Below are positions 14,722 through 39,754 of a stretch of 64,000 bases of DNA, piece after piece. How positions within the stretch are numbered: position 1 is the first letter of the stretch; each line of letters begins with the position of its first letter. The notes beneath the pieces are model-generated. The model did no database searches. It was not told where the DNA came from and was given only the letters and a program-made list of their open reading frames with translations. The position numbers and the translations under genes were made by a program. Source of the stretch: Candidatus Staskawiczbacteria bacterium (lineage in GTDB: Bacteria; Patescibacteriota; Minisyncoccia; Minisyncoccales; Staskawiczbacteraceae); contig JBAZUH010000001.1 of the NCBI GenBank assembly GCA_041661545.1, positions 339,877 through 403,876 of the forward strand, read 5' to 3'.

Positions 14722-17247
14722 ATGGAAATTTACGTAACAAAAAGAGACGGCTCAAAAGAAATTTTTGATGCTAACAGAATTAACAAATCTATTGAAAGAG
14801 CTTGTTTTGGATTAGATGATCCTATAAGCAAGGTTGTACAAATTGCTTCAGAAACTCAACTAATGCTTTACAACGGAATAACAACCGAAGAACTAGATTT
14901 TGCAACAATAAATTCTGCTCTACAAAATATTCAAGAAGATACTTCTTATGACAAAGTAGCCACTCGCCTACTTTTAAAAACTGTATATAAAAGAATTTTC
15001 GGGGATTATGGGGAAAATAACAATATTCTTGAAGAAAAATATAAAAAATATTTTGTAGAACACATAAAAAATAATGTTGAGTTGCAAATTTTAGACAAAA
15101 GAATGATAGAGAAGTTTAATTTAGAAGAATTATCAAATTCGCTAAATATTAAAAAAGATGAACTTTTTAAGTACGCAGGCGCGTCAACTCTATTTAATAG
15201 ATATTCAATAAAAGATAGCGAACAAAAACCAATTGAAACTCCCCAGTATTTTTTTATGAGAGTTGCTATGGGCCTTTCATATAACGAAGACAACCCAACC
15301 AAATGGGCTATAGAATTTTATAATAAAATGTCTAACTTAGAATATATAGCCGGAGGGTCTACTAATATTGGAGCTGGAACAACAAGACCAGCTTTATCAA
15401 ATTGTTTTTTATTAGAAATTCAAGATGATATAGAGAATATAGCAAAATCAGTTTCTGATGTAATCAAAATATCTAAATCAACCGGAGGAATTGGGGCCTC
15501 TATTACTAAACTAAGAGCTAGTGGCTCTCCTTTGTCTTCTAACAACACCACCTCATCTGGGCCAACTCCTTTTGCAAAAATCATAGATACTGCTATTAGA
15601 GCTATACAAAGAGGTGGCAAGAAAAAAGGAGCTTTATGTTTTTATATGGAAAATTGGCACATTGATTTTCCAGATTTTTTAATGTGGAAACATAACGCCG
15701 GAGATGATTATCTAAGAATGCGCACTGCCGATACTGCTGTGTTTATATCAGACGAATTTATGAAGCGAGTTAAAAATAAAGACAACTGGTATATGTTTGA
15801 CCCAAAAGAAACTCCCGACTTAAACGAATTATATGGAAAAGCATTTTCAAAAAGATATGTAGAATATATAGAAATGGCTGAAGCTGGAAAATTAAGGGTT
15901 TTTTCAAAAGCACCAGCAGAAGAACAATATAGACAAATTCTTGTAATGCTTCAAGCAACATCACACCCTTGGCTCACATTTAAAGATCCTATTAATGTAA
16001 GGGCTTTAAATAACAATACAGGAACCATTCATATGTCTAACCTTTGCACCGAAATATGCTTGCCCCAAGACAAAGATAATATTGCTGTATGCAATTTAGC
16101 ATCAATAAATATTTCAGCCCACATAGAAAATGCAAAGGTAAACTGGAAAAAATTAGAACAAACAGTAAGGCTATCTGTAAGACAATTAGACAATTTAATA
16201 GATATAAACTTACTACCTATACCAGAAGCTGTAAAATCTGACATAGAAAATAGGGCTATTGGATTGGGAGTTATGGGTTTTTCTGAAGCAGTAGAATTGC
16301 TTAAACTAGGCTATGAAGATGAAGAAACTTTTGAATTAGCTGATAAAATATTTGAATTTATAAGTTATTTTGCCATAGATGAAAGCGCAAATTTGGCTAC
16401 AGCTAGAGGCAGTTATAAAAATTTTCCTGGTTCTGGTTGGTCAAAAGGAAAAGTTCCTTTTGATACAATATCTGATTTAGAAAATGAAAGAGGAGAAAAA
16501 TTAGAATTAGACAAAACAAGCCATGCTACAGAATTAGGATTAGATTGGCAAGAACTAAGAAGAAAAGTTCAAAAAGGAATGAGAAACGCCACTCTTATGG
16601 CTGTAGCGCCCAATGCAAACATTGGATTATTAGCAGGCACTACTCCGGGAATTGACCCTAGGTTTGCCCAAGTATTTTCAAGAAATAAAATATCCGGAAA
16701 ATATTTAGACATAAACCATAATTTAGTTAAAGAATTAAAAGAAATTAAAATATGGGACGAAGTTAAAAAAGAAATTATAGAAAAACAAGGAGATATTTTA
16801 GATATCGAAAAAATACCAGAAAATATCAAAAAAAGATACAAATCTGCTTTTACAACCTCGCCCTATGCTTTTATAGAAATTGCCGCCCGTGCCCAAAAAT
16901 GGGTTGACCAAGCATTATCGCGTAATATGTATTTAGAAACAAGAATTACCGAAGAAATTATGGATATTTATTCAAATGCATGGAAAAAAGGACTAAAAAC
17001 TACTTATTACTTACATATGAAACCTAGGCACACAGCCGAGCAAAGCACTGTGTCTATAAATAAAAGAGAGAAAATGGGAAGAGTAGGTTTTTCCGCCTTC
17101 GCTACGGCTTCCGCCGACGCTAAAGCTTTGGCGGACAAGGGCTCTGTTGAAGATGAGGCTGAATATGAAGCTATCATGGCTAAAGTTTCTGCTACTCGTG
17201 GGCCAGAAGACCCACAAGAAAAGTTTTTATGCGACAGTTGTCAGTAA
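14722..17247 (+). CDS. nrdA: Ribonucleoside-diphosphate reductase alpha subunit (class Ia, ATP-cone)
   Basis: ATP-cone at the N-terminus (YVTKRDGSKEIFDANRINKSIERAC), active-site NLCTEI, and a C-terminal CDSC tail. Confidence 0.9.
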   Translation: MEIYVTKRDGSKEIFDANRINKSIERACFGLDDPISKVVQIASETQLMLYNGITTEELDFATINSALQNIQEDTSYDKVATRLLLKTVYKRIFGDYGENNNILEEKYKKYFVEHIKNNVELQILDKRMIEKFNLEELSNSLNIKKDELFKYAGASTLFNRYSIKDSEQKPIETPQYFFMRVAMGLSYNEDNPTKWAIEFYNKMSNLEYIAGGSTNIGAGTTRPALSNCFLLEIQDDIENIAKSVSDVIKISKSTGGIGASITKLRASGSPLSSNNTTSSGPTPFAKIIDTAIRAIQRGGKKKGALCFYMENWHIDFPDFLMWKHNAGDDYLRMRTADTAVFISDEFMKRVKNKDNWYMFDPKETPDLNELYGKAFSKRYVEYIEMAEAGKLRVFSKAPAEEQYRQILVMLQATSHPWLTFKDPINVRALNNNTGTIHMSNLCTEICLPQDKDNIAVCNLASINISAHIENAKVNWKKLEQTVRLSVRQLDNLIDINLLPIPEAVKSDIENRAIGLGVMGFSEAVELLKLGYEDEETFELADKIFEFISYFAIDESANLATARGSYKNFPGSGWSKGKVPFDTISDLENERGEKLELDKTSHATELGLDWQELRRKVQKGMRNATLMAVAPNANIGLLAGTTPGIDPRFAQVFSRNKISGKYLDINHNLVKELKEIKIWDEVKKEIIEKQGDILDIEKIPENIKKRYKSAFTTSPYAFIEIAARAQKWVDQALSRNMYLETRITEEIMDIYSNAWKKGLKTTYYLHMKPRHTAEQSTVSINKREKMGRVGFSAFATASADAKALADKGSVEDEAEYEAIMAKVSATRGPEDPQEKFLCDSCQ

Positions 17248-17269
17248 AAAATATTAATTACAAAAAATT

Positions 17270-18295
17270 ATGCCACTAATAGGAAAAGCCTCACCAAAAG
17301 ATTATAATATTCATCCTTCTATATACCCTTGGGCCAGAGAATTATATGACCAAGCTATAGCAAACACATGGTACCCCCACGAAATACCATTAAAAGAAGA
17401 TCTAGAAGATTGGGCAACCATGACCGACGACGAAAAATATGCGGTAGAATTTGTAATGTCTTTTTTTAATCCAGCTGAATTAATAGTAAACAGAGTTTTG
17501 GCTTTAGGGGTTTATCCTTATTTAAAATCAGCTGAATGTCATTTATATTTAGCCAAACAAATGTGGGAAGAAGCAAATCATTGCGTGGCCTTTGAATATG
17601 TTTTAGAAACTTTACCAATAGATAGAACAAAAGTTTATGAAGCTCATATGGTTACTCAATCTATGAAAGATAAAGAAGATTATATAAATGATTATGTAAG
17701 CCGTATGACAGAAGATACTTATGACGTTACCACAGTAGAAGGTAAAAAAGATTTTATAAGAAATCTTGTAGCCTATAATATAGTTATGGAAGGAGTTTGG
17801 TTTTATTCTGGATTTATGGTTATGTTATCTTTTAGACAAAGAAATAAATTAAGAAATTTAGGATCTATGATTAATTGGGTTTTAAGAGACGAAAGCTTAC
17901 ATTTAAAATTTGGGATTAATTTAGTTTTAACTTTATTAGAAGAAAACCCAGAAATAGTATCTGCCGAATTTGCAGAAGAAATAAAAAATATAATTATTAA
18001 AGGTGTTGATTTAGAAACTCAATATAATAAAGATTTATTCCCCCGGGGCATTTTAGGATTAAACGCAGATTATGTAAACCAATATGTGCAATATGTAGCC
18101 GACAGAAGAATGGAAGAATTAGGATTTTCTCCACATTATAATGTTACTAATCCGGCTAAATGGATGACAACTGCTACAGATGTTTACGAATTAGTAAATT
18201 TCTTTGAGTCTCAAAATACAAACTACGAAGTGAATTCTAAATCTTATAACCTGCCTGACCGGCAGGCAGGTACCGAAAAACCAAAAGAATCATAA
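17270..18295 (+). CDS. nrdB: Ribonucleoside-diphosphate reductase beta subunit
   Basis: Di-iron ligand segments WEEANHCVAFEYV and RDESLHLKFG. Lies 22 nt after nrdA. Confidence 0.9.
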   Translation: MPLIGKASPKDYNIHPSIYPWARELYDQAIANTWYPHEIPLKEDLEDWATMTDDEKYAVEFVMSFFNPAELIVNRVLALGVYPYLKSAECHLYLAKQMWEEANHCVAFEYVLETLPIDRTKVYEAHMVTQSMKDKEDYINDYVSRMTEDTYDVTTVEGKKDFIRNLVAYNIVMEGVWFYSGFMVMLSFRQRNKLRNLGSMINWVLRDESLHLKFGINLVLTLLEENPEIVSAEFAEEIKNIIIKGVDLETQYNKDLFPRGILGLNADYVNQYVQYVADRRMEELGFSPHYNVTNPAKWMTTATDVYELVNFFESQNTNYEVNSKSYNLPDRQAGTEKPKES

Positions 18296-18296
18296 T

Positions 18297-18325
18297 CAAA
18301 AAACACTCCTCAGGAGTGTTTTTTG
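18297..18325. terminator. Bidirectional intrinsic terminator between nrdB and tgt
   Basis: aaaaaacactcctcaggagtgttttttg: an 8-bp stem flanked by an A-run and a T-run. Confidence 0.75.
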
Positions 18326-18327
18326 AT

Positions 18328-19524
18328 TTAGATTTCGCCTTTTTTTATTTTTTCGCGTATATTTTCTACAAAAGTATTGAAATAATATAAGTTGTGGAAA
18401 GTTAAAAGCTTCATGCCGGTTATTTCGCCTGCTTTTAACAAATGGCAAATATAATCTTTTTTATAATTCAAACAAACATCACAAACACAACCTTTATCTA
18501 AAGGCTCATTTTTATTTAAAAACTTTGTTTGTTTTAAATTTAATTTTCCTTGAGAAGTAAAAGCAATCCCTCGTCTTGCATAATGCGTTGGAACAGTACA
18601 ATCAAAAGTATCGGCACCAGATTTTATAATTGACTCCATATCTTCTAAATAACCTACTCCTAAAAGATGCCTTGGTTTTTTTTCTGGCAATTCGTCTACC
18701 ACCCAGCCTATCATTTCTCCCATTTTCTTTTTATCATTTCCAAATTCTCCGCCAATTCCAAATCCATCAAAGTCCATAGCACCAATTGTTTTGGCGCTTT
18801 CAATTCTTAAATCTTTAAATTTAGACCCCTGAACAATTCCATACAAAGCTTGCTTGGATTTTTTAGCTTTCAAGCAAATTTCTGCCCATTTATGAGTTTT
18901 TTCTAAAGATTTTTTAACATAATCATATTCTGCTAAGGGAGCTGTGCATTCATCAAAAGCAAAAATAATATCTGCCCCTATTTTCTCCTGTATTTTAATA
19001 GATTCTTTGGGGCCAATAAATAATTCATCTCCATTTATTGGCGAACGAAAAATTACCCCGTCGTTATTTATTTTTATTTGCTTTGGCTGTGTACCTGCAC
19101 TAATTGAGCGAGGCAATAAATTTTTTTGAGACGAATGGGCACCGTCAGCAGACGGGTTGAGACGAGAAAAAATTTGATTGCCGAGCGCTAATTTACTACC
19201 CAATCCGTAGTCTGTACCAAAGCCCAAAGAAAAAACCTGATAGCCACCGGAATCTGTCATTAGGGGCTTTTTCCAATTCATAAATTTATGAATTTTACCG
19301 GCTTTTTCTACAATTTTCTCGCCCGGTTTTAAATGTAAATGAAATGTATTAGAAATTAAAATTTGTGATTTTGTTGCTTCTACTTCTTTGCTTTCTAAGG
19401 TTTTTATAACTGCTTGTGTTGCAACCGGAACTAAACACGGCGTTTCAACAACACCGTGCTCTGTTTCTAAAAATCCCAACCTCGCCCTGCTTTTATTAGA
19501 TTTTTTTAATATCTTAAAATTCAT
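18328..19524 (-). CDS. tgt: tRNA-guanine transglycosylase (queuine tRNA-ribosyltransferase) carrying an internal repeat-derived insertion
   Basis: TPCLVPVATQAVIKT, TDSGGYQVFSLG, FAFDECT, and Zn-site CVCDVC...H. There is an extra ~45 aa between GGYQVFSLG and VIFRSPINGD. Confidence 0.9.
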   Translation of the reverse strand: MNFKILKKSNKSRARLGFLETEHGVVETPCLVPVATQAVIKTLESKEVEATKSQILISNTFHLHLKPGEKIVEKAGKIHKFMNWKKPLMTDSGGYQVFSLGFGTDYGLGSKLALGNQIFSRLNPSADGAHSSQKNLLPRSISAGTQPKQIKINNDGVIFRSPINGDELFIGPKESIKIQEKIGADIIFAFDECTAPLAEYDYVKKSLEKTHKWAEICLKAKKSKQALYGIVQGSKFKDLRIESAKTIGAMDFDGFGIGGEFGNDKKKMGEMIGWVVDELPEKKPRHLLGVGYLEDMESIIKSGADTFDCTVPTHYARRGIAFTSQGKLNLKQTKFLNKNEPLDKGCVCDVCLNYKKDYICHLLKAGEITGMKLLTFHNLYYFNTFVENIREKIKKGEI

Positions 19525-19529
19525 TTAAA

Positions 19530-19619
19530 TTATTTATATGATGGAACTAATATTAAGATGCCAATTAAAATTACCATTATTAATCCTAAAACACCTAATA
19601 ACCAAATTTCTTTTTTCAT
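19530..19619 (-). CDS. Possible 29-aa single-TM micropeptide
   Basis: MKKEIWLLGVLGLIMVILIGILILVPSYK; below the ORF-track size cutoff. Sits immediately upstream of tgt on the same strand. Confidence 0.3.
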   Translation of the reverse strand: MKKEIWLLGVLGLIMVILIGILILVPSYK

Positions 19620-19774
19620 AAAATATAATCCGAATGTCATCCAAATAAATCCGAATGCCACGAATTAAATTCATCGTATTCGAAACATTAGAATGATTCG
19701 TAGATTTGTATTGTCTAGATTTATATTACCTGTTAAATGAAAAATATCAAAGGCCTGCCTGCCGGCAGGCAGGC

Positions 19775-19803
19775 TTGACATAGACTCATAAACAAAGTAT
19801 AAT
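19775..19803 (+). promoter_or_regulatory. Consensus sigma-70-type promoter (TTGACA-N17-TATAAT)
   Basis: TTGACA at 19775-19780, a 17-nt spacer, and TATAAT at 19798-19803. The 22-nt palindrome gcctgcctgccggcaggcaggc abuts it directly on the upstream side. Confidence 0.6.
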
Positions 19804-19895
19804 AAAAATAACTAACAAGTCGCAAAACGACCTGCTAGGAATTAAAAAGGTCGTTTTACTATTTATTAGGCACGCGCCTATAAAAGAAACAAAAA

Positions 19896-20075
19896 ATGTT
19901 CGACAGAAACAATAATAATGGAGGTTTTGTCAAAAGAGAGCCTGTTAAAGGAAACTGGAAATGCTCCGAATGCGGAGTAGAAATTACAGAGCTTCCTTTT
20001 GAACCAGCTCCCGACAGACCAATCTATTGCAGAGAATGCTGGTCTAAAAAAAGACCTCCAAGATTCAGCAGATAA
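19896..20075 (+). CDS. Small zinc-ribbon protein (59 aa)
   Basis: MFDRNNNNGGFVKREPVKGNWKCSECGVEITELPFEPAPDRPIYCRECWSKKRPPRFSR. One residue below the ORF-track cutoff. Followed by a terminator at about 20086-20115. Confidence 0.6.
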   Translation: MFDRNNNNGGFVKREPVKGNWKCSECGVEITELPFEPAPDRPIYCRECWSKKRPPRFSR

Positions 20076-20176
20076 TTGAATCGAAAATAATCCCCTTCTT
20101 GGGGGTTATTTTTTTATAAAAAATTTGTATAATTTTTTAATAGTGATACAATAAAAAAAAATAAAGTAAAAAAATA

Positions 20177-20602
20177 ATGAACAAAGAAAAAAAAGATCTT
20201 CTAAAAAAAATACAAAATACTTATTGTAGGTTAAGAGCATCTAAAATAGAAGGCGTAGGAATTTTTGCTATAAGAGATATTCCAAAAGGAATAAATCCAT
20301 TTTACGGAGTAAGAAAAGAAAAATGGATTAAATTTAATAAATCAGAAATAGAAAATTTAGACGAATCTATATTAGAAATGGTTAATAGCTTTTTTGTTGT
20401 TAATAAAGATGGGTCTGTTTACATGTCTGATTGCGGTCTTCATGGGATGAATGTATCTTATTTTTTAAATCATTCTAAAAAACCTAATGTTACAACAAAT
20501 AAAAATGGCGAAAATTTTATTACCTTAAGAAAAATCAAAAAGGGTGAAGAATTGTCAGTTTCATATTCAATTTACGCCCATAATGAAAAATATAAAATTT
20601 AA
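20177..20602 (+). CDS. SET-domain protein (putative protein-lysine methyltransferase)
   Basis: GVGIFAIRDIPKGINPF, NHSKKPNV, and KIKKGEELSVSY. Confidence 0.75.
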   Translation: MNKEKKDLLKKIQNTYCRLRASKIEGVGIFAIRDIPKGINPFYGVRKEKWIKFNKSEIENLDESILEMVNSFFVVNKDGSVYMSDCGLHGMNVSYFLNHSKKPNVTTNKNGENFITLRKIKKGEELSVSYSIYAHNEKYKI

Positions 20603-20604
20603 CT

Positions 20605-21972
20605 ATGAGCAACGAAAATGGTAATGGTAACGGCCATATCAATGGAAACGGAAAAAATAATTTACCAGATGCAAAGGTTTTACCTGAAAAAATAATTAGA
20701 AAATTTTTATTTGTAAGCTGGGAAAGCTTATCAGGAGATTTAGCATGGCAAATTAAAAGAGAGGGCCACGAAGTTAAAATTTATATAAAATCAGAAAAAG
20801 ATAAAGACGTTTACGATGGTTTTTTAGATAAAGTAGATGATTGGAAAAAATATATTGATTGGGCAGATGTTATTGTTTTTGATGATGTGGGATTTGGCCC
20901 AACTGCCGACGAATTAAGAAAATCCGGCAAATTAATTGTTGGCGGATCAGCTTATACAGATAAACTAGAAGAAAATAGAGAATTTGGTCAAGCAGAAATG
21001 AAAAGAGTTGGAATGCTAACGCTTCCCCACTGGGATTTTTCTGATTATGAAACAGCCCTAAAATTTATTGAAGAAAATCCAGGAAGATATGTTTATAAAC
21101 CTTCTGGATTTACCGGCTCTGATGTAAAAGGGCTTTTATTTATTGGCAAAGATGAAGACGGAAAAGATTTGCATGAAATAATAAGATCAAACAAAAAAGT
21201 ATTACAACAACGGGTTAAACAATTCCAACTTCAAAAATTTGCCTCGGGCGTTGAAATAGCAGTTGGTGCATTTTTTAATGGAAACGATTTTATTTATCCG
21301 CTACATGTTAATTTTGAACATAAAAAATTATTTCCAGGAGATATTGGGCCATTTACAGGAGAAATGGGAACTTTAGGTTATTTTTCTGGACCAAATACAA
21401 TATTTAGAACCACTTTAGAAAAAATGCGGGAAGATATAAAAAAATCAGGTTACGTAGGATATGTTGATATAAATTGTATTGCTAACGCCCGAGGAATATA
21501 CCCCCTGGAATTTACCTGTAGGTTTGGATACCCAACAATATCTTTACAAATAGAAGCAATTACTAGCGAATGGGGCGAATTCTTATATAAAATTGCTAAA
21601 GGAGAAAATTACGATTTAAAAACAAAAAAGGGCTTTCAAATATGCGTGGTATGCTCGGTTCCACCATTTCCCTATAATGATAAAGATGAAATGGCCATAT
21701 ATAAAGACCTTTCAATTATTTTTAAAAAACCTAATTTAGACGGCGTGCGTCTTGGAGATGTAAAATTAGTTGATGGAAGCTGGCAAATAGCTGGAGAAAC
21801 CGGCTACTCATTAATAGTAACTGGCGCTGGCACAACCGTAGAAGATGCTAGAAAGCAAGTTTACAGCAGAATAGAAAATATATTGTTACAAAATATGTTT
21901 TATAGAACAGACATAGGAATGGGCTGGAATGAAGATTCTGATAAATTACAAACCTGGGGATATCTTTATTAA
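20605..21972 (+). CDS. ATP-grasp enzyme, PurD (phosphoribosylamine-glycine ligase)-like
   Basis: 455 aa with PurD-like layout (KFLFVSWESLSGDLAWQIKREGHEV, YVYKPSG, and an ATP-grasp core). Starts 3 nt after the SET gene. Confidence 0.6.
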   Translation: MSNENGNGNGHINGNGKNNLPDAKVLPEKIIRKFLFVSWESLSGDLAWQIKREGHEVKIYIKSEKDKDVYDGFLDKVDDWKKYIDWADVIVFDDVGFGPTADELRKSGKLIVGGSAYTDKLEENREFGQAEMKRVGMLTLPHWDFSDYETALKFIEENPGRYVYKPSGFTGSDVKGLLFIGKDEDGKDLHEIIRSNKKVLQQRVKQFQLQKFASGVEIAVGAFFNGNDFIYPLHVNFEHKKLFPGDIGPFTGEMGTLGYFSGPNTIFRTTLEKMREDIKKSGYVGYVDINCIANARGIYPLEFTCRFGYPTISLQIEAITSEWGEFLYKIAKGENYDLKTKKGFQICVVCSVPPFPYNDKDEMAIYKDLSIIFKKPNLDGVRLGDVKLVDGSWQIAGETGYSLIVTGAGTTVEDARKQVYSRIENILLQNMFYRTDIGMGWNEDSDKLQTWGYLY

Positions 21973-21989
21973 CTCGTTTATAAAAAAAC

Positions 21990-22018
21990 AAAAACCCCAA
22001 TATTGGGGTTTTTGTTTT
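21990..22018. terminator. Bidirectional intrinsic terminator
   Basis: aaaaaccccaatattggggtttttg. Confidence 0.7.
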
Positions 22019-22024
22019 GTATTT

Positions 22025-22225
22025 TTAGTTTCTACCTAACTTTGGAAAAACTACTACCAAATAAATTGCTGACAATCCTACCAATACATATACAATATTG
22101 GTTAAAGCTGATCCCTCTCCTAAAAGCATCGTAACCAAGTTCCAACCAAATGCTACCAACAACCAATTTAACCCTCCTACAATTACCAATACTAATGCTA
22201 CTAAATCTAAAGTATTAAATTTCAT
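22025..22225 (-). CDS. DUF378-family small membrane protein
   Basis: LVALVLVIVGGLNWLLVAFGWNLV is typical of DUF378. Confidence 0.7.
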   Translation of the reverse strand: MKFNTLDLVALVLVIVGGLNWLLVAFGWNLVTMLLGEGSALTNIVYVLVGLSAIYLVVVFPKLGRN

Positions 22226-22328: not shown

Positions 22329-22826
22329 TCATTCTATAAATAAACTTGCTGTATCACCCACTTTTAATTTTATATTTTCTGCTATGCCCGCGTTAACCTC
22401 TAAAACATACTTAGCTTTTGCTAGCGAGCCAACTGTTGGACATATTAAAACTTTTACCTGCCTGCCGGCAGGCAGGCAGGGCTGAACATTATTAGCAATA
22501 AAAATTATTTTTCTATTTTCGTTTATCCAAATTATATCTAATGGTATTAAAGTATTTTTCATCCAAAAAGGATAAACGCCTTCTTTTTCAAAAATAAAAA
22601 GCATACCCTTGTCTGCATCTAGTTGGTTTCTGTTCATTAGACCTTTTGCTCTTTCTGATTCTGTTTTAGCAATTTCTACAGAAAAACAATTCTCTTTAAA
22701 ACATACTTTGTTGTTTATACTTTGCAAGGTTCCTGGAGACAATAAAATATTAGCTGAATTAAAAAAGATAAAAATTATAATAATAATTATAACTATTAAA
22801 AAAAATATTTCTAATATCATTTTCAT
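22329..22826 (-). CDS. DUF192-domain protein
   Basis: GLMNRNQLDADKGMLFIF and FWMKNTLIPLDIIWI. Contains an in-frame cctgcctgccggcaggcagg palindrome encoding CLPAGRQV. Confidence 0.75.
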   Translation of the reverse strand: MKMILEIFFLIVIIIIIIFIFFNSANILLSPGTLQSINNKVCFKENCFSVEIAKTESERAKGLMNRNQLDADKGMLFIFEKEGVYPFWMKNTLIPLDIIWINENRKIIFIANNVQPCLPAGRQVKVLICPTVGSLAKAKYVLEVNAGIAENIKLKVGDTASLFIE

Positions 22827-22830
22827 ATTA

Positions 22831-27564: not shown

Positions 27565-27623
27565 GTGTCCTATCCCGCCACAGCGGGACCCCGCTTAGGC
27601 GGGGCCATTAGACGACCTCGCAA
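27565..27623 (-). pseudogene. Duplicated 5' fragment of tRNA-Gln with a 32-nt double-hairpin insert in the D-loop
   Basis: Reverse strand: TTGCGAGGTCGTCTAATGG[ccccgcctaagcggggtcccgctgtggcggga]TAGGACAC. The TCGTCTAATGG...TAGGACAC part is identical to the D-arm of the intact tRNA-Gln. Confidence 0.6.
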
Positions 27624-32204: not shown

Positions 32205-32280
32205 TGGAGCCACCTCGCAGAATCGAACTGCGGACCCACACTTTACGAAAGTGTTGCTCTACCAACTGAGCTAAGGTGGC
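32205..32280 (-). tRNA. tRNA-Thr (anticodon CGU), CCA encoded
   Basis: Reverse strand: GCCACCTTAGCTCAGTTGGTAGAGCAACACTTTCGTAAAGTGTGGGTCCGCAGTTCGATTCTGCGAGGTGGCTCCA. Confidence 0.85.
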
Positions 32281-32292
32281 AATTTTATTTTT

Positions 32293-32366
32293 TGGAGCGG
32301 ATAACGGGAATCGAACCCGTGTCTCAACCTTGGGAAGGTTGCGTTCTACCATTGAACCATACCCGC
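32293..32366 (-). tRNA. tRNA-Gly (anticodon CCC), CCA encoded
   Basis: Reverse strand: GCGGGTATGGTTCAATGGTAGAACGCAACCTTCCCAAGGTTGAGACACGGGTTCGATTCCCGTTATCCGCTCCA. Confidence 0.85.
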
Positions 32367-32374
32367 ATTAATAT

Positions 32375-32794
32375 TTAATCTTTGCTTTCAAACCAGCTAA
32401 AAATACCCGTTAACCAACCAAACCAAGAACTTATGCCCCCCAAATTATCTTTTTTTAAATTAACTTCCGCTAATTTAGGAGAATTTACAAACATATATTC
32501 TGTTTCTCCTGGTCTAGTTTGTCCAAATTGCTCATATCCTAATTTTTCTAAATAATCAACACTATTAGAATTAACAATTTCATTTCTTAAGTTTTCACTA
32601 CTATTTTTTATATCTTCAATTTGTTTTTTATAAATACTAATTTCTGCATCTAAATTTCTCTTTTTTTGATATATTCTAATATCTTGAAAAATCATGAATA
32701 AAATAAACAATATAAATAAAACCCCAGCAACTTTAAATAAAAGCTGATTATTGATAAATTTACCCTTTTCTTTTTTATTAAAATCGGCTACCAT
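32375..32794 (-). CDS. FtsB/DivIC-like septum formation initiator (TM plus coiled coil)
   Basis: N-terminal TM followed by heptad-rich segment (IRIYQKKRNLDAEISIYKKQIEDIKN). Confidence 0.5.
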   Translation of the reverse strand: MVADFNKKEKGKFINNQLLFKVAGVLFILFILFMIFQDIRIYQKKRNLDAEISIYKKQIEDIKNSSENLRNEIVNSNSVDYLEKLGYEQFGQTRPGETEYMFVNSPKLAEVNLKKDNLGGISSWFGWLTGIFSWFESKD

Positions 32795-32826
32795 TTAATA
32801 AAGCTATACTATTTAATTTTAAAAAT

Positions 32827-32925
32827 ATGAAGAAAAAAACTTTGTTTAGAGTTACTTGGATAATACTAATAAGTCTTGTTGCCCTTAGCATGATTCTTTT
32901 TTCAGTTGCATCTATTATTTTCTAA
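32827..32925 (+). CDS. Possible 32-aa single-TM micropeptide
   Basis: MKKKTLFRVTWIILISLVALSMILFSVASIIF, followed by the terminator aaaaagactgcttttaaaagcagtctttttt. Confidence 0.35.
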   Translation: MKKKTLFRVTWIILISLVALSMILFSVASIIF

Positions 32926-32997
32926 ATCAATTAAATATTATCATAAAAAGACTGCTTTTAAAAGCAGTCTTTTTTATTTTTAATATCGAATAGATAA

Positions 32998-33540
32998 TTA
33001 GCCCATTCCTATGCTTTTAACAGCTTTTTCATAAGTAGATAAAACTTTCTTGGCTTCTTCGGCTGATAATTTATAGTCTGGGTTATATACTATAAAATTT
33101 CTAACTTCGTGAGCGTGCAACACATCTGGTAAAATTGGGTCTATTAATCTTCCTGCTTTTTGTATAATTTCATCAAAATTAACACCTTCATAGCCCCTAT
33201 TATCTAAAACTTCAGCTAAAAAATCGTCGGCATCAATTATAGATAATTTATAATCTGATTCAGCCCCAGATTCTATTCTTCTTTTAATTCTATTCCATTG
33301 TTTTTCCATTTCTCTTTGACCATATGCTTGCCAGGAAAAAAACTCTGTCATGTCTTCTAAAAATTTATATTGAAGCCATGAAGAGTTAATCATAAAGTAA
33401 ATTACTAAAATTAAAAATAAAAATGCGAATAAAACAAAAACCATTTTCACAGGAAAAAGCGTATCTTGCAATTGCGAAGACGAAATAAAATAAATAAAAT
33501 CTGTAATTCCTAGTGTGTTATAAAAATCTTCCCATGTCAT
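32998..33540 (-). CDS. Membrane-anchored hypothetical protein
   Basis: 180 aa with one TM. TTTACA-N17-TATAAT lies only 8 nt upstream of the ATG, so the mRNA may be leaderless. Confidence 0.6.
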   Translation of the reverse strand: MTWEDFYNTLGITDFIYFISSSQLQDTLFPVKMVFVLFAFLFLILVIYFMINSSWLQYKFLEDMTEFFSWQAYGQREMEKQWNRIKRRIESGAESDYKLSIIDADDFLAEVLDNRGYEGVNFDEIIQKAGRLIDPILPDVLHAHEVRNFIVYNPDYKLSAEEAKKVLSTYEKAVKSIGMG

Positions 33541-33694
33541 ATTTATTTATTATAATTGTACGTTAATAAAATGTAAAGCCACTCCACCCCGCACCATTTT
33601 CATCCGTGTAATAAATAATACAAAATTATATCTGCGAAGCGCCTACGGCTGTCATTGTGGTAATAAAAAATCACCAGTAAAAATGGTGAAGGGG

Positions 33695-33729
33695 TTTCGC
33701 GACGGCAAAGTAAATTTATTCCGTCGCTC
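33695..33729 (-). promoter_or_regulatory. GAGCG-hairpin-CGAAAC motif, copy 1 (3' boundary of island A)
   Basis: Minus strand: ttttttttGAGCGACGG-aataaatttactttg-CCGTCGCGAAAC. The stem sequence differs from copies 2 and 3 by compensatory changes. Confidence 0.55.
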
Positions 33730-33780
33730 AAAAAAAAGAAGCGGCCGGTGTGGTCGCTATGCAAAACATGAGAAAGGAGT

Positions 33781-34041
33781 TTAGGCCGGAATCGCCCTAA
33801 TTTCAGCAGCAAATTGTTCGCGAATTTTCGCCACGGCTTCATCAACCGACTCCTCTACGACGCCTGGGAGCGTATATCCTTCACAATCAATCCAATACTC
33901 CCTCCACCAAGAGGCGTGAATCTGTTCGACAAGAGAATTTCGCAATCCAATCGGATTTGACTTCAGTTCTATAAAGAAAACCCGCTTGTGCCTAGCAGAT
34001 AATCTCCTGAATCTCTTCAACAACCATTCTGAAAGCATCAT
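33781..34041 (-). CDS. Island A orphan protein A2 (86 aa), paralog of A1
   Basis: KRVFFIELKSNPIGLRNSL aligns with RRVFLESLSNPSELRNVI of A1. G+C is visibly above the flanks. Confidence 0.55.
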   Translation of the reverse strand: MMLSEWLLKRFRRLSARHKRVFFIELKSNPIGLRNSLVEQIHASWWREYWIDCEGYTLPGVVEESVDEAVAKIREQFAAEIRAIPA

Positions 34042-34071
34042 GGCTCATTTTCTCCTTTCATTATTCGGTTA

Positions 34072-34395
34072 TCACACTTTTTTGCCACGGGGCGTCCTAG
34101 CAGCCGCTTTTATAGAGTCTACAATATCAGTATCCGCCATTTCTTTGGCAAATCGTTTTTTAAGGGCCGAGATCATTTCGGTTGCATCTTCATGGTGATC
34201 GACCTCTCTAATACGCAGACCCGTCTCTTTTGGAAATACTCGTGCCCAAATGCTTAAAGACCCTGTAATTACATTCCTAAGCTCGCTGGGATTAGACAAA
34301 GACTCCAAAAATACACGTCGCGACTCACCTTGTAATCCTTCATATTTATTCACTATCCACACTACGAATCTCGGTTCCAGTGGTTCCCTTTTCAT
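34072..34395 (-). CDS. Island A orphan protein A1 (107 aa)
   Basis: Candidate TTTACA-N17-TAAATT promoter upstream on the minus strand, after the atpC terminator. Paralogous to A2. Confidence 0.55.
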   Translation of the reverse strand: MKREPLEPRFVVWIVNKYEGLQGESRRVFLESLSNPSELRNVITGSLSIWARVFPKETGLRIREVDHHEDATEMISALKKRFAKEMADTDIVDSIKAAARTPRGKKV

Positions 34396-34499
34396 GATTT
34401 TTTATTCTATGTTGACAAGTTGCTGTGTAAATATAATTTACAGCTTTTTTATCTTTTTGTAAAGCAAAAACCGCCTTTGGGCGGTTTTAAAATTTGATT

Positions 34500-34742
34500 C
34501 TATTCTTCAATTATAACCCTGACTTCGTTATCTGGTTTTATTTCCAAAAATCCGGAAGTTATTGGGAAAAACTGCTCCTGTTTATCTTTATCAATAATTT
34601 TAATAATTCCAGCAGACAACACGCTAATTAACGGCTCGTGTTTATCTAATACAGTTATTTCACCCATTATTGTTTGACAATTAAAACTAGAGGCCTCGCC
34701 CTGAAATAAGACATTTTTTAATGAGTAAATTGATAATTTCAT
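34500..34742 (-). CDS. atpC: F1 ATP synthase epsilon subunit (short, N-terminal beta-sandwich only)
   Basis: Position after atpD, plus GEITVLDKHEPLISVL and GFLEI. Confidence 0.8.
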   Translation of the reverse strand: MKLSIYSLKNVLFQGEASSFNCQTIMGEITVLDKHEPLISVLSAGIIKIIDKDKQEQFFPITSGFLEIKPDNEVRVIIEE

Positions 34743-34748
34743 AGTTTA

Positions 34749-36214
<1,466 letters not shown>

Positions 36215-36238
36215 TTATTTTTGATTTTTAAAATTATA

Positions 36239-36367
36239 AGCGAGGCAGTGAATTCGTAGCGTACCCTGCAGGCAATTTTGCTTGGTCCCGCGAAGCGGGA
36301 AAATTGCCGAAGCCTGAGTGAGCCCGCGCTGGCGGGCGAACGCTAGCGAAGAATCACTGGCGAGCGA
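36239..36367. repeat. G+C-rich structured intergenic repeat, copy E2 (between atpG and atpD)
   Basis: Near-identical core to E1. Differences are paired: ggcaAtgaattc/gaatcaTtgcc in E1 versus ggcaGtgaattc/gaatcaCtggc in E2, and ttgcgcgctggcgcaa versus cccgcgctggcggg. Confidence 0.8.
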
Positions 36368-37330
36368 TTAAGAAAGTGCTTCCGCACCAGCACTAATTTC
36401 TGAAATTTCTGTGGTAATTTTACTTTGTCGTGATTTGTTATATTGTAAATTTAAATTATTTCCTAAGTCAGAAGCATTGTCACTTGCCGTTTTCATGGCC
36501 ATACGTCTTGCTGAATGTTCACTTGCATTAGCTTCTAATATTAAATGGTAAACTTGTATAAAAAATAAATGTTTTGCTAATTTATTTAAAACCTCTTCTG
36601 CTGACGGCTCAATTAAAAAGTCTTTAGAATTGGCTTTGTTAGGCACAAAATTTATATTATGCTCTTTAATTAAATCAGCAAACTTTCCGCGTTCTGGAAT
36701 AATTTCTTTAACTGTGTCGGCTATATGATCAAAATCAATTGGTAAAATTCTTCTTACGTGAGTTTCTTGTTTTAAGGCACTTCTAAAATGAGTTGATACT
36801 ACAACAACCCTATCCCAGCTCTCATTTATATATCCATCTACTAAAAAATCTACTATTGGGTGAATTTGCTCTGTGGTTGTATAGTCACCCACTGATACAA
36901 ACTTTTTAACAACGTTAAAATTTTTCTTTGATAAATAATTAAATGCTTTTTCTCCTACAGCCATATATATATGTTCTTCCCTTGTCGCGCCAGAACCTTT
37001 GGCAGAGGCAGGGTATTCTTTTTGATGTTGTTCAAACTTTCTAAAAACAGAACTATTAAATGCACCAGCCAACCCTTTATCTGAAGAAACTAAAACAAAT
37101 AAAACTTTTTTTACATTTCTTTTATTAAATAATTCCGGCAATTTTGCAGAATCCAAACTAGATATTGTTGCCAAAAAATCAAGTGCCGCAAAAGCATAGG
37201 GCCTGCTGGCAAGTGCTATCTCCTGCGATTTACGCATTTTGGTAGCAGCCACCATTTCCATGGCCTTTGTAATTTTATTTATGTTAGAAACGCTTTTTAA
37301 ACGCTTCTTAATATTCTGCGGTGATTCCAT
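36368..37330 (-). CDS. atpG: F1 ATP synthase gamma subunit
   Basis: IKKRLKSVSNINKITKAMEMVAATKMRK and the C-terminal ITTEISEISAGAEAL. Confidence 0.9.
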   Translation of the reverse strand: MESPQNIKKRLKSVSNINKITKAMEMVAATKMRKSQEIALASRPYAFAALDFLATISSLDSAKLPELFNKRNVKKVLFVLVSSDKGLAGAFNSSVFRKFEQHQKEYPASAKGSGATREEHIYMAVGEKAFNYLSKKNFNVVKKFVSVGDYTTTEQIHPIVDFLVDGYINESWDRVVVVSTHFRSALKQETHVRRILPIDFDHIADTVKEIIPERGKFADLIKEHNINFVPNKANSKDFLIEPSAEEVLNKLAKHLFFIQVYHLILEANASEHSARRMAMKTASDNASDLGNNLNLQYNKSRQSKITTEISEISAGAEALS

Positions 37331-37338
37331 GTTTTCGT

Positions 37339-37413
37339 GTAACGCGTAATGTGTAACATGTAACGCGTAATTTTTTGTTTTTCTGGTTACCGATTACTGT
37401 TTACCGGTTACTC
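37339..37413. repeat. GTAAC/GTTAC inverted 12-mer array, copy X2
   Basis: gtaacgcgtaat appears twice, 21 nt apart, followed by a T-rich spacer and ggttaccgattac / tttaccggttactc. Confidence 0.65.
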
Positions 37414-37421
37414 AATTTATA

Positions 37422-37450
37422 TTGACAAATTTTTATAATGGGTATATTAT
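37422..37450 (+). promoter_or_regulatory. Promoter of island B (TTGACA-N17-TATTAT)
   Basis: TTGACA at 37422-37427, a 17-nt spacer, and TATTAT at 37445-37450. Confidence 0.55.
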
Positions 37451-37498
37451 TTTGATACGAGCAATTCCGCTCTTTCCCAACTTTAACCGGAGACAATC

Positions 37499-37681
37499 AT
37501 GAAAGTCAAATATGTCTTGGTCGTAAAAAGTCGCGATGGAACATACGTCGTAGACGAACATGAAATATACGGCGATGATGCCATGCAACGCGCCCTATCA
37601 GCTACAACAACTCTCATCCAAAGCTGGGTTATCCGTGACAGAAAGAAATTCGTTTCGCTCACAATCACCTCACACGAATAA
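37499..37681 (+). CDS. Island B orphan protein B1 (60 aa)
   Basis: First ORF after the promoter. G+C is higher than in the atp genes and the strand is opposite to them. Confidence 0.5.
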   Translation: MKVKYVLVVKSRDGTYVVDEHEIYGDDAMQRALSATTTLIQSWVIRDRKKFVSLTITSHE

Positions 37682-37699
37682 ATCAGAAGGACCAAAATC

Positions 37700-37861
37700 A
37701 TGAATCATATCCTTAGTATATTCGCTCTCGTTGTATTTACAATCGGAGCAATCTTTTTAACAGTGAATAACACCTCCATAGCGACGCTTTGCTTCTCAAT
37801 TTCTGCCGCGATCATGAGCTTTGCCTGCTATTTCAAACTTGATGATAGGCCAAAATCATGA
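37700..37861 (+). CDS. Island B small membrane protein B2 (53 aa)
   Basis: MNHILSIFALVVFTIGAIFLTVNNTSIATLCFSISAAIMSFACYFKLDDRPKS has two hydrophobic helices. Its stop overlaps the B3 start (ATGA). Below the track cutoff. Confidence 0.45.
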   Translation: MNHILSIFALVVFTIGAIFLTVNNTSIATLCFSISAAIMSFACYFKLDDRPKS

Positions 37862-38067
37862 AAGAACTAATCGGAAAGCTTGTCAGAATAACCCTTTCCG
37901 CGCCCAGTGGAAATAACATCGTAACCTATGAAGGGTGGGTTTGTTGTGTTGAAGGAAGCATGGTTAAGTTAAAAGGCATGGTGGTCCTCAGTCAAGGCAG
38001 GATGGATTGCAATCCAACATGGTTCAACACTACTTCAAAGGACCTCCGGACCATAGAAGAGCAATAA
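37858..38067 (+). CDS. Island B orphan protein B3 (69 aa), possibly a small beta-barrel (Sm-like pattern)
   Basis: LIGKLVRITLSAPSGNNIVTYEGWVCCVEGSMVKLKG loosely fits an Sm1-type hydrophobic pattern. This is a speculative call. Confidence 0.45.
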   Translation: MKELIGKLVRITLSAPSGNNIVTYEGWVCCVEGSMVKLKGMVVLSQGRMDCNPTWFNTTSKDLRTIEEQ

Positions 38068-38102
38068 TCCCATACATAACCTTGCGATTAATCGCTCGGC
38101 TC

Positions 38103-38130
38103 GCCACGCACGTTCGTGGCTCTTTTTTTT
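38103..38130 (+). terminator. Intrinsic terminator of island B
   Basis: gccacgcacgttcgtggc followed by a T-run. Confidence 0.65.
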
Positions 38131-38167
38131 GAGCGCGAAATTTATTTTTTCTTTAATCGCGCGAAAC
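38131..38167 (+). promoter_or_regulatory. GAGCG-hairpin-CGAAAC motif, copy 2
   Basis: ttttttttGAGCGCG-aaatttattttttctttaat-CGCGCGAAAC. Confidence 0.55.
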
Positions 38168-38200
38168 TCGTCCGAAGCCCTTGGCGAAGGAGGGTTAATC

Positions 38201-39754
38201 CTAATTTTTTTCTATAAAAGAACTGATAACTTTCTTGATTTTTTCTTCTAACTCATCGCTAATTTTCTTTTCTGTTCTTATTTCATCAACAATATCTTTA
38301 TGTAAATTTTCAAAATATTCAATATATTTTACCTCAATTTCTTTCATTTGTTTTGGTTCAAATTTTTCAAAATAATCATTTAAGGCAGCATACAAAACCA
38401 AAACTTGTTTTTCAAAAGCCATTGGGGCTAAATCTGATTGCTTTAAAATTTCAGTAACAATTTTACCTTTGTTAATTCTCTTTTTTGTTGTTTCATCAAC
38501 GTCACTGGCAAATTGAACGAAGGTTTGCAATTCTCTAAATTGAGCAAGCTCTAACCTTAATTTTCCGGCAACTTTTTTCATTGCCTTTGTTTGAGCATCA
38601 CCTCCAACGCGAGAAACCGACAAACCAATGTTAACAGCTGGCCTTGTTCCTTGATAAAACAAATCACTTTCCAAATAAATTTGCCCGTCTGTAATAGAAA
38701 TAACGTTTGTTGGAATATAAGCTGTAACATCGCCCAACTGTGTTTCAATAATTGGTAAAGCAGTTAAACTGCCACCTCCTTTTTCTTTAGAAAGTCTTGC
38801 AGCTCTTTCTAATAAGCGGGAATGTAAGTAAAATACATCTCCAGGATAAGCTTCACGTCCTGGTGGTCTTCTTAAAAGTAATGAAATTTGTCTGTAAGCC
38901 CATGCGTGCTTAGACAAGTCGTCGTAAACTGCAACGGCATCTTTTTTATTATCACGAAAATATTCTCCAATAGCACATCCTGCAAATGGTGCTAAATACC
39001 AAAAAGCTGCTGGAGTCGAAGCACTTGCTGAAACCACAACTGTATAAGGCAATGCGCCATGTTTTTTTAATGTTTCAACAATTTTTGCAACTTTAGATTC
39101 TTTTTGACCAATAGCAACATAAATACAAACTGGAGGATTTTTTGGATTATCTTGAATTTGGTTAATTATAACATCCAAGGCAACTGCGGTTTTTCCGGTT
39201 CCCCTGTCTCCAATAATTAATTCTCTTTGACCTCTACCAATTGGAATCATACTATCAATGGCTTTAATTCCTGTATGCAAAGGCGTGTTAACAGATTCTC
39301 TGCCAATAACATTTGGCGCATCGTTTTCCAAGAAATTTAAAACTGGTTTCTCCTTTTCAGAAAAAATTGGACCCTTGCCATCTAAAGGATTTCCTAATGG
39401 ATCAATAACTCTGCCCAATAAATGTTCACCAACAGGTATAGAAAGAATTTGTTTTGTTCTTTTTACAGTTTGACCTGATTTAATTAAAGAACCGTCACCC
39501 AAAATTAAGGCTCCAACAGAATCTTCTTCCAAGTTAAAGGCGACAGCCTTAACTTGCCTCGCCGAAGCTTTAGCGGAGGCGGGTTCTCCATCAATTTCCA
39601 CTATCAAAACTTCTTGGGATTGAACATTGGTTAAGCCCGATATTTTGGCAATACCATCGCCAACTTCAGATATTTTTCCAATTTCTTCCCATTCTGAGTT
39701 GTCTTTATATCCTTCAATGGCTTGCTTAATTTTTTCTATTATTTCTTGGCTCAT
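38201..39754 (-). CDS. atpA: F1 ATP synthase alpha subunit (with a small repeat-derived N-terminal insertion)
   Basis: Walker [10 protein letters not shown] and ITDGQIYLE. The segment [16 protein letters not shown] is encoded by gcctcgccgaagctttagcggaggcggg. Confidence 0.95.

Follow-up and report, generated by a model that had tools for sequence, protein, structure and literature searches.

Rickettsia is the best-known source of in-frame 'protein-coding palindromes', with more scattered cases among other bacterial MITEs and in the mitochondria of yeasts. The REP/BIME sequences of proteobacteria are imperfect palindromes of 20–40 nt located in transcribed spacers, often at a very short distance from stop codons; many are clustered or nested, and they show no target duplication. 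REPs are extragenic by definition, and should be accompanied by a RAYT gene and have a conserved GTAG head. Rickettsia palindromic elements (RPEs), in the summary that PMC10969869 gives of Ogata et al. (2000 and 2002), are non-autonomous palindromic repeats of roughly 100–150 bp. A MITE, by definition, has a parent insertion sequence and target-site duplications (PMC10969869). No description of such elements in bacteria of the Candidate Phyla Radiation (CPR) was found.

G+C-rich hairpins in frame in housekeeping genes

The DNA analysed (the window, 64,000 nt) belongs to a Candidatus Staskawiczbacteria member of the CPR, which has a tiny genome of 34% GC. Five of its genes, nrdA (14722–17247, + strand), nrdB (17270–18295, +), tgt (18328–19524, −), a DUF192 gene (22329–22826, −) and atpA (38201–39754, −), had been said in an earlier note, made by inspection of the DNA, to carry extra G+C-rich segments in frame. 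All the sequences quoted there were found where it had placed them, the five segments all form hairpins, and each is missing from some close orthologs, relative to which the net gain is 18–20 residues in tgt, nine in atpA, seven each in nrdB and DUF192, and six in nrdA. For each segment, the window also contains intergenic repeats of the same family. Filled and clean empty alleles were found among orthologs with 80–87% protein identity for tgt, atpA, nrdB, the DUF192 gene and the superoxide dismutase (SOD) gene. The note had set its claim against the possibility of lineage-wide ancestral loops with no similarity to the intergenic repeats; in ortholog alignments the segments were patchy, present in some close relatives and absent from others, and are thus not loops of that kind, and they have nucleotide sequence in common with the intergenic repeats. 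The observation of in-frame palindromic segments in housekeeping genes is confirmed.

A scan for perfect stems, which is too strict and misses most elements, detected nine G+C-rich hairpins in the window compared with 1.15 ± 1.0 in first-order Markov simulations. A census of G+C-rich islands was too unspecific, as many are conserved motifs or come from higher-GC relatives; in the window, those in the DEAD-box helicase, Nramp and transketolase genes are merely conserved motifs. The comparison with relatives covered 30 gene families in the window and 63 related loci (∼0.94 Mb around two anchor genes).

The segments are very probably copies of at least three families (F1, F2 and F3) of small, non-autonomous, hairpin-forming repeats which have spread through Staskawiczbacteria genomes. 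F1 lies chiefly in transcribed spacers, right after a stop codon. Intragenic copies would persist only when their length is a multiple of three, they bring no stop into the host frame and they fall in an insertion-tolerant loop; those surviving would then be translated as Gly/Ser/Ala/Pro-rich surface peptides. Such a filter would account for the repeated hits of different elements on the same few loops. We infer that the copies are translated, surface-located, nearly neutral and mobile. No transposase, RAYT or other mobility gene was found in any window ORF.

The long family F1 in tgt, in mnmA and behind stop codons

F1 elements are 68–150 nt long, and ∼19 copies were found in roughly 0.94 Mb, those of the window being one in tgt and four between genes. 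Conserved 20-nt termini (CGCTCGGCAAy...rTTGCCTCGC) are common to the ∼19 copies and form imperfect terminal inverted repeats around a variable, hairpin-forming interior: GGCAAyMAAmTTTTTT pairs with AAAAArTTTrTTGCC, the outermost CGCTCG and CCTCGC pair imperfectly, and the terminal stem shows AU↔GC compensatory changes. The flanks are AT-rich (TAA/TTA-like).

The tgt element (19105–19190, core 19108–19187, − strand) encodes ALGNQIFSRLNPSADGAHSSQKNLLPRS and has termini identical to those of the intergenic copies. It is absent from most orthologs, and three relatives (L002, L004 and L046) retain short remnants with both termini. The element is not a simple insertion: its 85 nt stand in place of a ∼33-nt AT-rich loop of the 'empty' alleles. 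Only part of the ∼45 extra residues formerly ascribed to Tgt, relative to an E. coli-like protein, can be credited to the element (18–20 net), since ∼27 form an older loop common to all Parcubacteria-type orthologs, where the stretch from QVFSLG to FRSP measures 47–49 residues. Residues 102–150 stand where a 375-aa bacterial Tgt of solved structure has ∼3 residues; an AlphaFold2 model built on a 28-sequence alignment reached a pLDDT of 50, too poor to use. The insert is carried by independent assemblies from NCBI, JGI, ENA and Logan, and an exact database look-up of the window Tgt returned no record. In a database census of host proteins, a 56-aa tandem query of the element peptide matched one protein, a 96-aa DUF5679 protein carrying the peptide; the sole match of a full HMMER scan with 31 aa was an irrelevant low-complexity protein.

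The 80-nt element recurs in the mnmA gene of two relatives with an empty tgt (L006 and L013), in the same frame and phase. These copies are 86–94% identical to that of the window, compared with 77–82% for tgt coding DNA. The recurrence in tgt and mnmA is the strongest evidence obtained; the high identity among copies could reflect constraint or gene conversion instead of recent movement. The peptide, xLGN(Q/E)IFSRLNPSADGAHS..KNLLPR, is the same in both genes, and all the coding F1 copies (7/7) share a single orientation and phase and read xLGN...LLPR. The loci of L023 and L036 contain one F1 subfamily in two settings, within mnmA and between genes.

Nine of the 12 intergenic F1 copies start 0–10 nt past the stop codon of a co-oriented gene, in sense orientation, and lie upstream of a terminator-like site where one was seen. 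Nesting is common. In the window, a nested pair occupies the 3′ untranslated region of the SOD gene (10739–10911, −), starting 5 nt past the stop codon and preceding a terminator-like site (10713–10690); it folds at −72 kcal/mol and is 96% identical over 84 nt to 36239–36322. The latter positions belong to an F1 element (36239–36367, −) that starts 1 nt past the atpG stop codon and fills the atpG–atpD spacer. This spacer, just 12–46 nt long in most relatives and filled by different palindromes in L086 and L044, is a hot spot with three different elements. Two further nested elements lie 4 nt past the stop codon of a fur-like gene (12060–12187, −) and 6 nt past that of bipA (63139–63266, +).

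Such positions, and a terminal stem maintained by compensatory changes, would also suit elements that are mainly functional RNA or DNA hairpins (3′-end stabilisers, intercistronic processing signals or stop-codon-proximal regulators like E. coli REP), with the coding copies as by-products or as a means of translation pausing. This reading, which is compatible with mobility, appears somewhat unlikely. Element copies are indeed more conserved than host DNA, but they are patchy among close relatives and unrelated hairpins appear at the same place, which fits opportunistic colonisation better than conserved function. The sense strand of the inserts contains the stable-tetraloop motif CTTCGG 10 times and its complement four times, a weak bias; in L003, one copy between genes lies antisense to those around it; and the orientation bias is inseparable from replication direction because the gene strand switches near 42 kb of the window, coinciding with a change in GC skew.

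As to how dispersed repeats of this kind might have moved, inspection by eye of all F1 and F2 junctions revealed no consistent direct repeat and no convincing target-site duplication. A search of the window and related loci for a parent insertion sequence with F1 termini, paired 0.3–4 kb apart, returned chance pairs only. The F1 terminus is absent from viral contigs, and no Rfam model matched any element at a permissive threshold (E ≤ 1).

Short hairpins of the F2 and F3 families

The hairpins of F2 and F3 consist of G+C only and are 18–36 nt long. F2, CCTGCCTGCCGGCAGGCAGG, is found in nrdB, in the DUF192 gene and between genes at 19753–19774, directly upstream of a TTGACA-17-TATAAT motif; 8/13 F2 copies are inside ORFs, and identical 20-nt sequences occur at unrelated loci. 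The palindromes that had been pointed out in nrdB and DUF192 proved to be in-frame 21-nt inserts. That of nrdB (18250–18270, +; LPDRQAG) is shared by the window, L002 and L003 and missing from L005; the tail of the product is ∼14 aa longer than that of Chlamydia R2c (PDB 1syy). That of DUF192 (22455–22475, −; LPAGRQV) is an exact insertion between TGC and AAA, which 10 of 12 orthologs lack. A different hairpin, also of 21 nt, occupies this nucleotide position in L007, and the two could be one diverged old insert rather than two events. The short F2 inserts have no target-site duplication and sit at C/A junctions.

In atpA, the insert described in the N-terminal beta-barrel is a 27-nt F3 hairpin (39557–39583, −; PASAKASAR), absent from five orthologs of 82–86% identity; the barrel has 12 extra residues relative to all solved alpha subunits, and two other lineages bear different G+C-rich hairpins in the same loop. 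Both termini of this copy, CCTCGCCGAAGC...GrAGGCGGG, are common to two F3-like elements, one 6 nt past the atpA stop codon (38157–38193, −) and the other intergenic (54886–54938), which resembles a longer relative of the atpA insert; these two have CGCGCGAAAC..TCGyCGAAGC..GAAGGnGGG in common. The nrdA segment (17092–17135, +), in the C-terminal linker, contains one or more F3-like hairpins. The extra palindrome claimed for it exists and is missing from L005, but only 18 nt (17101–17118, ATASAD) are specific to the window genome, the hairpin TCCGCC..GGCGGA being present in the two closest orthologs and absent from a third; there is just one hairpin, TCCGCCTTCACTAAAGTTTCGGCGGA, in each of L002 and L003. 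The 18 nt look like a partial tandem duplication. Not listed in the earlier note was an F3-like segment in atpG (36980–37015, −; YPASAKGSGATR), a small window-specific extension in the gamma-subunit alignment; in relatives, atpG carries many different palindromic inserts at five sites or more. An unclassified double G+C hairpin lies 13 nt past the ftsX stop codon (27567–27621).

The DUF192 insert lengthens host CTGC to CTGCCTGCCTGC, after which comes the complement of the latter. Together with the duplication-like 18 nt of nrdA and the repeated hits on the same sites, this would suit hairpins born in place at fragile AT-rich sites, through slippage during replication, template switching or repair synthesis, instead of by dispersal. 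The F2 20-mer was also found in viral contigs (38–68% GC, most >55%), and can therefore arise or exist independently; these contigs being unrelated and mostly of such high GC, it was dismissed as information on CPR elements. A local origin is nevertheless very unlikely, given that identical 20-nt and 80-nt sequences occur in unrelated loci, in different genes and genomes, and for F1, whose termini are conserved around differing interiors, it is largely refuted.

Insertion hot spots and census across relatives

Spread of small repeats filtered by what proteins tolerate, the explanation preferred here, would leave different elements in the same loops. A G+C-rich palindrome missed earlier lies in the interdomain loop of SOD (11223–11268, −; net +4 aa), a site empty in five orthologs and falling in a gap of the PDB alignment; L030, L028, L035 and L032 have other inserts in this loop, including SAKASAAE in L030. 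In all, three different elements were found in the AtpA loop, five in the SOD loop and at least eight in the mnmA loop. In alignments with solved homologs, the coding inserts sit in gaps that separate conserved blocks.

The census yielded 73 minority insertions of ≥4 aa, with a mean GC of 57% (37.6% in coding DNA) and a mean folding energy of −11.8 kcal/mol, compared with −5.0 kcal/mol for 219 random same-length segments (P = 3e-9). The encoded peptides are 47% G+S+A+P versus 23% in window proteins. Their in-frame nature was borne out: all 73 keep the frame and contain no stops, and among 374 gene-locus pairs a palindrome was found in none of the seven that were broken. That the segments are ordinary lineage-specific loops, their G+C richness and palindromy being accidental, is hardly credible: the ∼27 aa of the Tgt loop are lineage-wide and some window islands are conserved motifs, but ortholog alignments with filled and empty close relatives, the sequence in common with intergenic repeats and the strong enrichment in GC and predicted folding stability refute it. 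Nor is it at all probable that the inserts are left untranslated, whether by RNA removal or by ribosome bypass as in the mitochondrial GC-cluster 'byp' elements of Magnusiomyces, which are likewise G+C-rich hairpins in an AT-rich genome (PMC8811140), since bypass or splicing would impose no constraint on frame, stops or phase, whereas the inserts are all multiples of three without a host-frame stop and the F1 coding copies are always in the same phase.

Implications

Several unrelated families behaving likewise in a CPR lineage point to a recurrent outcome in small AT-rich genomes. The proteins hit include ATP synthase alpha and gamma, both ribonucleotide reductase subunits, Tgt, MnmA and SOD. 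Palindromes may explain many of the odd Gly/Ser/Ala-rich 'CPR-specific insertions' in conserved proteins; such insertions would then be poor phylogenetic or functional markers, and the inserts would serve as natural maps of insertion-tolerant loops. The question raised is what moves hairpins of 20–130 nt in genomes apparently without transposases. A quite unlikely answer is an active insertion system, new to science, in Staskawiczbacteria, perhaps in many Parcubacteria, that would place sense-oriented hairpins into transcribed DNA, behind stop codons and in specific loops, via recognition of single-stranded DNA or RNA hairpins and not by a classical cut-and-paste transposase. If true, the turnover of surface loops on ATP synthase, ribonucleotide reductase and tRNA-modifying enzymes would contribute greatly to the variation of proteins in these ultra-small symbionts.

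Comparison with known systems

MITEs such as ERIC, BOX, Correia and those of Anabaena are also small, have terminal inverted repeats, lack a transposase and occasionally form in-frame fusions with host ORFs (PMC10969869). F1 has the terminal inverted repeats, but a parent insertion sequence was not found in the window or related loci. With REP/BIME the elements have in common imperfect palindromes near stop codons in transcribed spacers, and nesting; the size of F2 and F3 fits a REP, but a strictly extragenic class does not accommodate the F2 copies within ORFs. Neither a RAYT gene nor a GTAG head was seen here, and no Y1 (IS200/IS605-like) transposase Pfam domain was found in any window ORF.

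The GC clusters of yeast mitochondria are, like the elements described here, short G+C-rich palindromes in a genome very rich in A+T, located chiefly in transcribed intergenic DNA, with fast-diverging loops, merging and nesting, and strain-variable in-frame insertions, e.g. in var1 (PMC8811140). They differ in being organellar and in their AG/TAG terminal repeats, taken as target duplications (PMC8811140), whereas no terminal duplication was recognised here. The related byps, which interrupt the frame or bring stops, are skipped by the ribosome (PMC8811140); none of the 73 inserts does either.

The likeness to RPEs, proposed in the earlier note, holds for behaviour and apparently not for descent: the presence of one F1 subfamily in frame in tgt and mnmA of different genomes is the defining behaviour of RPEs, but evidence of homology was not found, and the elements do not appear to be members of the RPE families, the resemblance being functional only. 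As RPEs are summarised in PMC10969869, both kinds of element occupy intergenic DNA as well as in-frame sites within unrelated housekeeping genes, use one reading frame that yields a recognisable family peptide, comprise several families per genome and inhabit an AT-rich reduced genome. The host phylum here is CPR/Patescibacteria, no sequence relationship is known, and F2 and F3 are well below the RPE size range given in that summary, while F1 extends from below it to its upper end. Unlike RPEs, the F1 copies cluster directly behind stop codons, and the same loops have been struck repeatedly by different elements.

Extent of the inserts in the window genes

Staskawiczbacteria belong to the Parcubacteria group of the Candidate Phyla Radiation (CPR). 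The G+C content of the window is 34%, and an earlier note had claimed that several of its housekeeping genes (tgt, atpA, nrdA, nrdB and a DUF192 gene) carry extra in-frame segments encoded by G+C-rich palindromes. The gene identities were correct, the sequences quoted for the segments lie where the note had placed them, and comparison with close orthologs, among which both filled (insert-containing) and empty alleles were found, established that the segments are indeed extra. The observation of in-frame palindromic inserts was confirmed, although their extent had to be corrected in two cases, tgt and nrdA.

In the case of tgt, ∼45 extra amino acids had been proposed. Residues 102–150 of Tgt occupy the place of ∼3 residues in a 375-aa bacterial Tgt of solved structure. 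Most of 28 Tgt orthologs (79–91% identity) are 380 aa long and bear the loop GSKIL-KKEQERGESIKENAQP, which is replaced by ALGNQIFSRLNPSADGAHSSQKNLLPRS in a subset that includes the window protein. At the DNA level, the 85-nt element stands where the empty allele has ∼33 AT-rich bases. Comparison of orthologs and DNA thus showed that ∼27 of the extra amino acids belong to an older, group-wide loop, the element contributing a net 18–20. Short remnants bearing both termini of the element were present in the tgt genes of three related loci (L002, L004 and L046). The element contains stop codons in four of its six reading frames. Further polymorphic G+C-rich inserts occur at other sites of Tgt in relatives (proteins P0006, P0055, P0065, P0119, P0026, P0010 and P0102 of alignment A1; loci L008, L014, L030, L034 and L044), for example HSASSGQAKKS after CLK, SAKGSGGP/FAKGYGG, ACLPAG, SLRQGFGGQAG and an N-terminal extension.

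The segment claimed in nrdA is a hairpin insert, but its extent was smaller than proposed: a single hairpin, missing in L005, is common to the window, L002 and L003, and the window alone has a further 18 nt, which look like a partial duplication. The NrdA tail could not be aligned with solved structures. The NrdB tail is ∼14 aa longer than that of the solved Chlamydia R2c; its gene bears a 21-nt insert, CTGCCTGACCGGCAGGCAGGT, which L005 lacks. AtpA has 12 additional residues in its N-terminal beta-barrel compared with solved structures (+27 nt relative to five empty-site orthologs), and the same loop holds different G+C-rich hairpins in two other lineages. In the DUF192 gene, an exact 21-nt insert lies between TGC and AAA and is lacking in 10 of 12 orthologs, while L007 bears a different 21-nt hairpin at the identical position.

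Census of inserts across related loci

Thirty gene families of the window were aligned with those of 63 related loci (∼0.94 Mb in total), and insertions of ≥4 aa were collected where only a minority of the sequences carried them. This yielded 73 minority insertions in 12 gene families and 38 loci, and added two inserts in the window, in the SOD gene (11223–11268) and atpG (36980–37015). The insert DNA had a mean G+C content of 57%, as against 37.6% in the background of coding DNA; 67% of the inserts reached at least 55%. Together with their 9-nt flanks, the inserts had a mean folding energy of –11.8 kcal/mol, as opposed to –5.0 for 219 length-matched random segments (P = 3 × 10–9); the corresponding z-scores were –1.7 and –0.3 (P = 2 × 10–6). 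Gly, Ser, Ala and Pro make up 47% of the insert peptides, versus 23% of the window's proteins. The same motifs recur in unrelated genes (SAKGSGG/FAKGYGG/SAKAS; LPAQAG/LPSRQAG), as does an exact 20-nt palindrome encoding DRSMG; PSTGSG (CCCTTCGACAGGCTCAGGG) was found in Tgt, AtpG, SOD and a SpoU methylase. The reading frame was broken in only 7 of 374 gene-locus pairs, and a palindrome was involved in none of the seven. G+C-rich islands in the DEAD-box helicase, Nramp and transketolase genes were considered as candidate elements and rejected, being ordinary conserved motifs.

The hexamer CTTCGG, which corresponds in RNA to the very stable cUUCGg tetraloop, occurs 10 times on the sense strand of the 73 inserts and four times on the complement. 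Its density in the inserts is ∼3 per kb, as opposed to 0.1 per kb in coding DNA of the window.

Three repeat families with intergenic copies

The proposed likeness to intergenic repeats was borne out for all three kinds of insert: the long palindromic family F1 and the short G+C-rich hairpin families F2 and F3 all have intergenic copies. The F1 termini, CGCTCGGCAAy...rTTGCCTCGC, are common to the tgt element and to four long window hairpins (10739–10911, 12060–12187, 36239–36367 and 63139–63266) with folding energies of –38 to –72 kcal/mol and frequent nesting. The terminal stem of F1 showed compensatory changes between AU and GC pairs. F2 (CCTGCCTGCCGGCAGGCAGG) is present in nrdB, the DUF192 gene and the intergenic stretch 19753–19774, and 8 of its 13 occurrences across relatives are within ORFs. 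For F3, the atpA insert has both ends (CCTCGCCGAAGC ... GrAGGCGGG) in common with the intergenic stretch 54886–54938, which resembles 38157–38193, directly behind atpA. No Rfam family matched the F1, F2 or F3 elements.

The exact F2 20-mer was also found in 35 stretches of viral contigs (L161–L195), mostly of high G+C content and some with several copies (six in one 29.5-kb contig); the palindrome is thus repeated in unrelated genomes rich in G+C as well. Another dispersed hairpin family, possibly of bidirectional terminators, is represented by the 46-nt perfect-stem palindrome AAAAAGTCGCGTTTTTGACGGCCGTCAAAAACGCGACTTTTT, which the window contains twice (53208–53253 and 61168–61213). Near-identical terminator-like hairpins, AAGCCACC..GGTGGTTTTTTG, form a family at positions 43323, 44914, 45418 and 63267.

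The same element in different genes

The 80-nt tgt element has copies within mnmA of L006 and L013, in the same phase and encoding SLGNEIFSRLNPSADGAHSPRKNLLPR; in both genomes tgt is empty. The four tgt-type copies are 86–94% identical to one another, compared with 77–82% for the tgt coding DNA of the same genomes. The mnmA loop concerned (GHYAR|..|LLKG) is a hot spot. Unoccupied in L008 and L041, it holds F1 elements with differing interiors in L006 (19817–19896), L013 (12378–12459), L023 (9937–10028), L033 (20050–20117) and L036 (6060–6150), and other palindromes in L012, L029 and L053. In L023 and L036 the mnmA F1 subfamily is also present in a nearby intergenic region. All seven F1 coding copies agree in orientation and phase.

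Another long palindromic element, which has the termini CCCACTAACTTTGGG (L025, 1746–1816; L017, 12185–12199), was seen in frame within Tgt in one genome and within a SpoU-type methylase in another. An exact 20-nt palindrome, CCCATAGACCGGTCTATGGG, is common to the Tgt of L025 and the AtpD of L040. The F1 peptide LANQIFSRLNPSSDGAHSPQKNLLAR is part of the called N-terminus of P0121 (96 aa, DUF5679; ENA contig of 2,038 bp), giving the tgt-type element a third host context, although the element may lie in the 5′ untranslated region instead.

Placement of F1 behind stop codons

Nine of 12 intergenic F1 copies begin 0–10 nt past the stop codon of a same-strand gene; in the window, such copies directly follow bipA, atpG, fur and sod, the last lying between the stop codon and a terminator-like site. 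The atpG–atpD spacer, 12–46 nt long in most relatives, is expanded by F1 to 169 nt in the window; in L086 and L044, different palindromes enlarge it. The placement of F1 behind stop codons is like that of E. coli REP elements; a role at the RNA level, a mechanism of strand-specific insertion or a combination of the two may account for it. The cumulative GC skew has its minimum at ∼42000, a possible replication origin, with genes on the minus strand to its left and on the plus strand to its right. On either side, the F1 elements lie on the same strand as the genes; as the change in gene orientation coincides with that in GC skew near 42 kb, transcription and replication are inseparable here.

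Other features of the window

A 438-aa ORF (49447–50763) of 55–61% G+C in a neighbourhood of 25–35% looks like a recent horizontal acquisition. It weakly resembles a xylose-isomerase-like TIM barrel, its best solved relative being a 2-hydroxy-3-keto-glucal hydratase (E = 2.7 × 10–17), and adjoins a Pif1-like helicase gene (50871–52229). A second G+C-rich patch lies at 52500–52800. Positions 1–5800 hold 3–4 tandem units of ∼1.6 kb each, 60–87% identical, probably part of one very large repetitive gene extending past the left end of the window. An 891-aa NosD/beta-helix protein (7961–10636) has internal coding tandem repeats of 63–69 nt. Transketolase is split between two ORFs (12670–14020), which encode its N-terminal, thiamine-diphosphate-binding part and its pyrimidine-binding part, respectively, and a 98-aa ORF (11744–12040) matches only the C-terminal end of the anaerobic ribonucleotide reductase NrdD.

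Mechanism and comparison with known systems

No ORF of the window contained a transposase-like domain, no autonomous parent element for the repeats was found in the window or the related loci, and no consistent target duplication was seen at the element junctions. The best-supported reading is that non-autonomous hairpin repeats would insert, or be copied, throughout transcribed DNA, selection then removing those coding copies that break the frame, introduce a stop codon or disturb the fold. Strict frame conservation suggests that the inserts are translated, and their position in alignment gaps with solved homologs points to surface loops.

A full-text search, of incomplete coverage and hence providing absence of evidence only, returned no prior description of palindromic elements, MITEs or REPs for CPR, Patescibacteria or Staskawiczbacteria. 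The resemblance to Rickettsia palindromic elements (RPEs) proposed in the earlier note is supported in the sense that the elements work like RPEs, but not as family membership. Their behaviour also matches that of GC clusters inserted in frame in yeast mitochondrial genomes; there is no evidence of a shared origin with either system. The shortness of the F2 and F3 families, the position next to stop codons and the recurrent colonisation of particular loops go beyond what has been described for those two systems.
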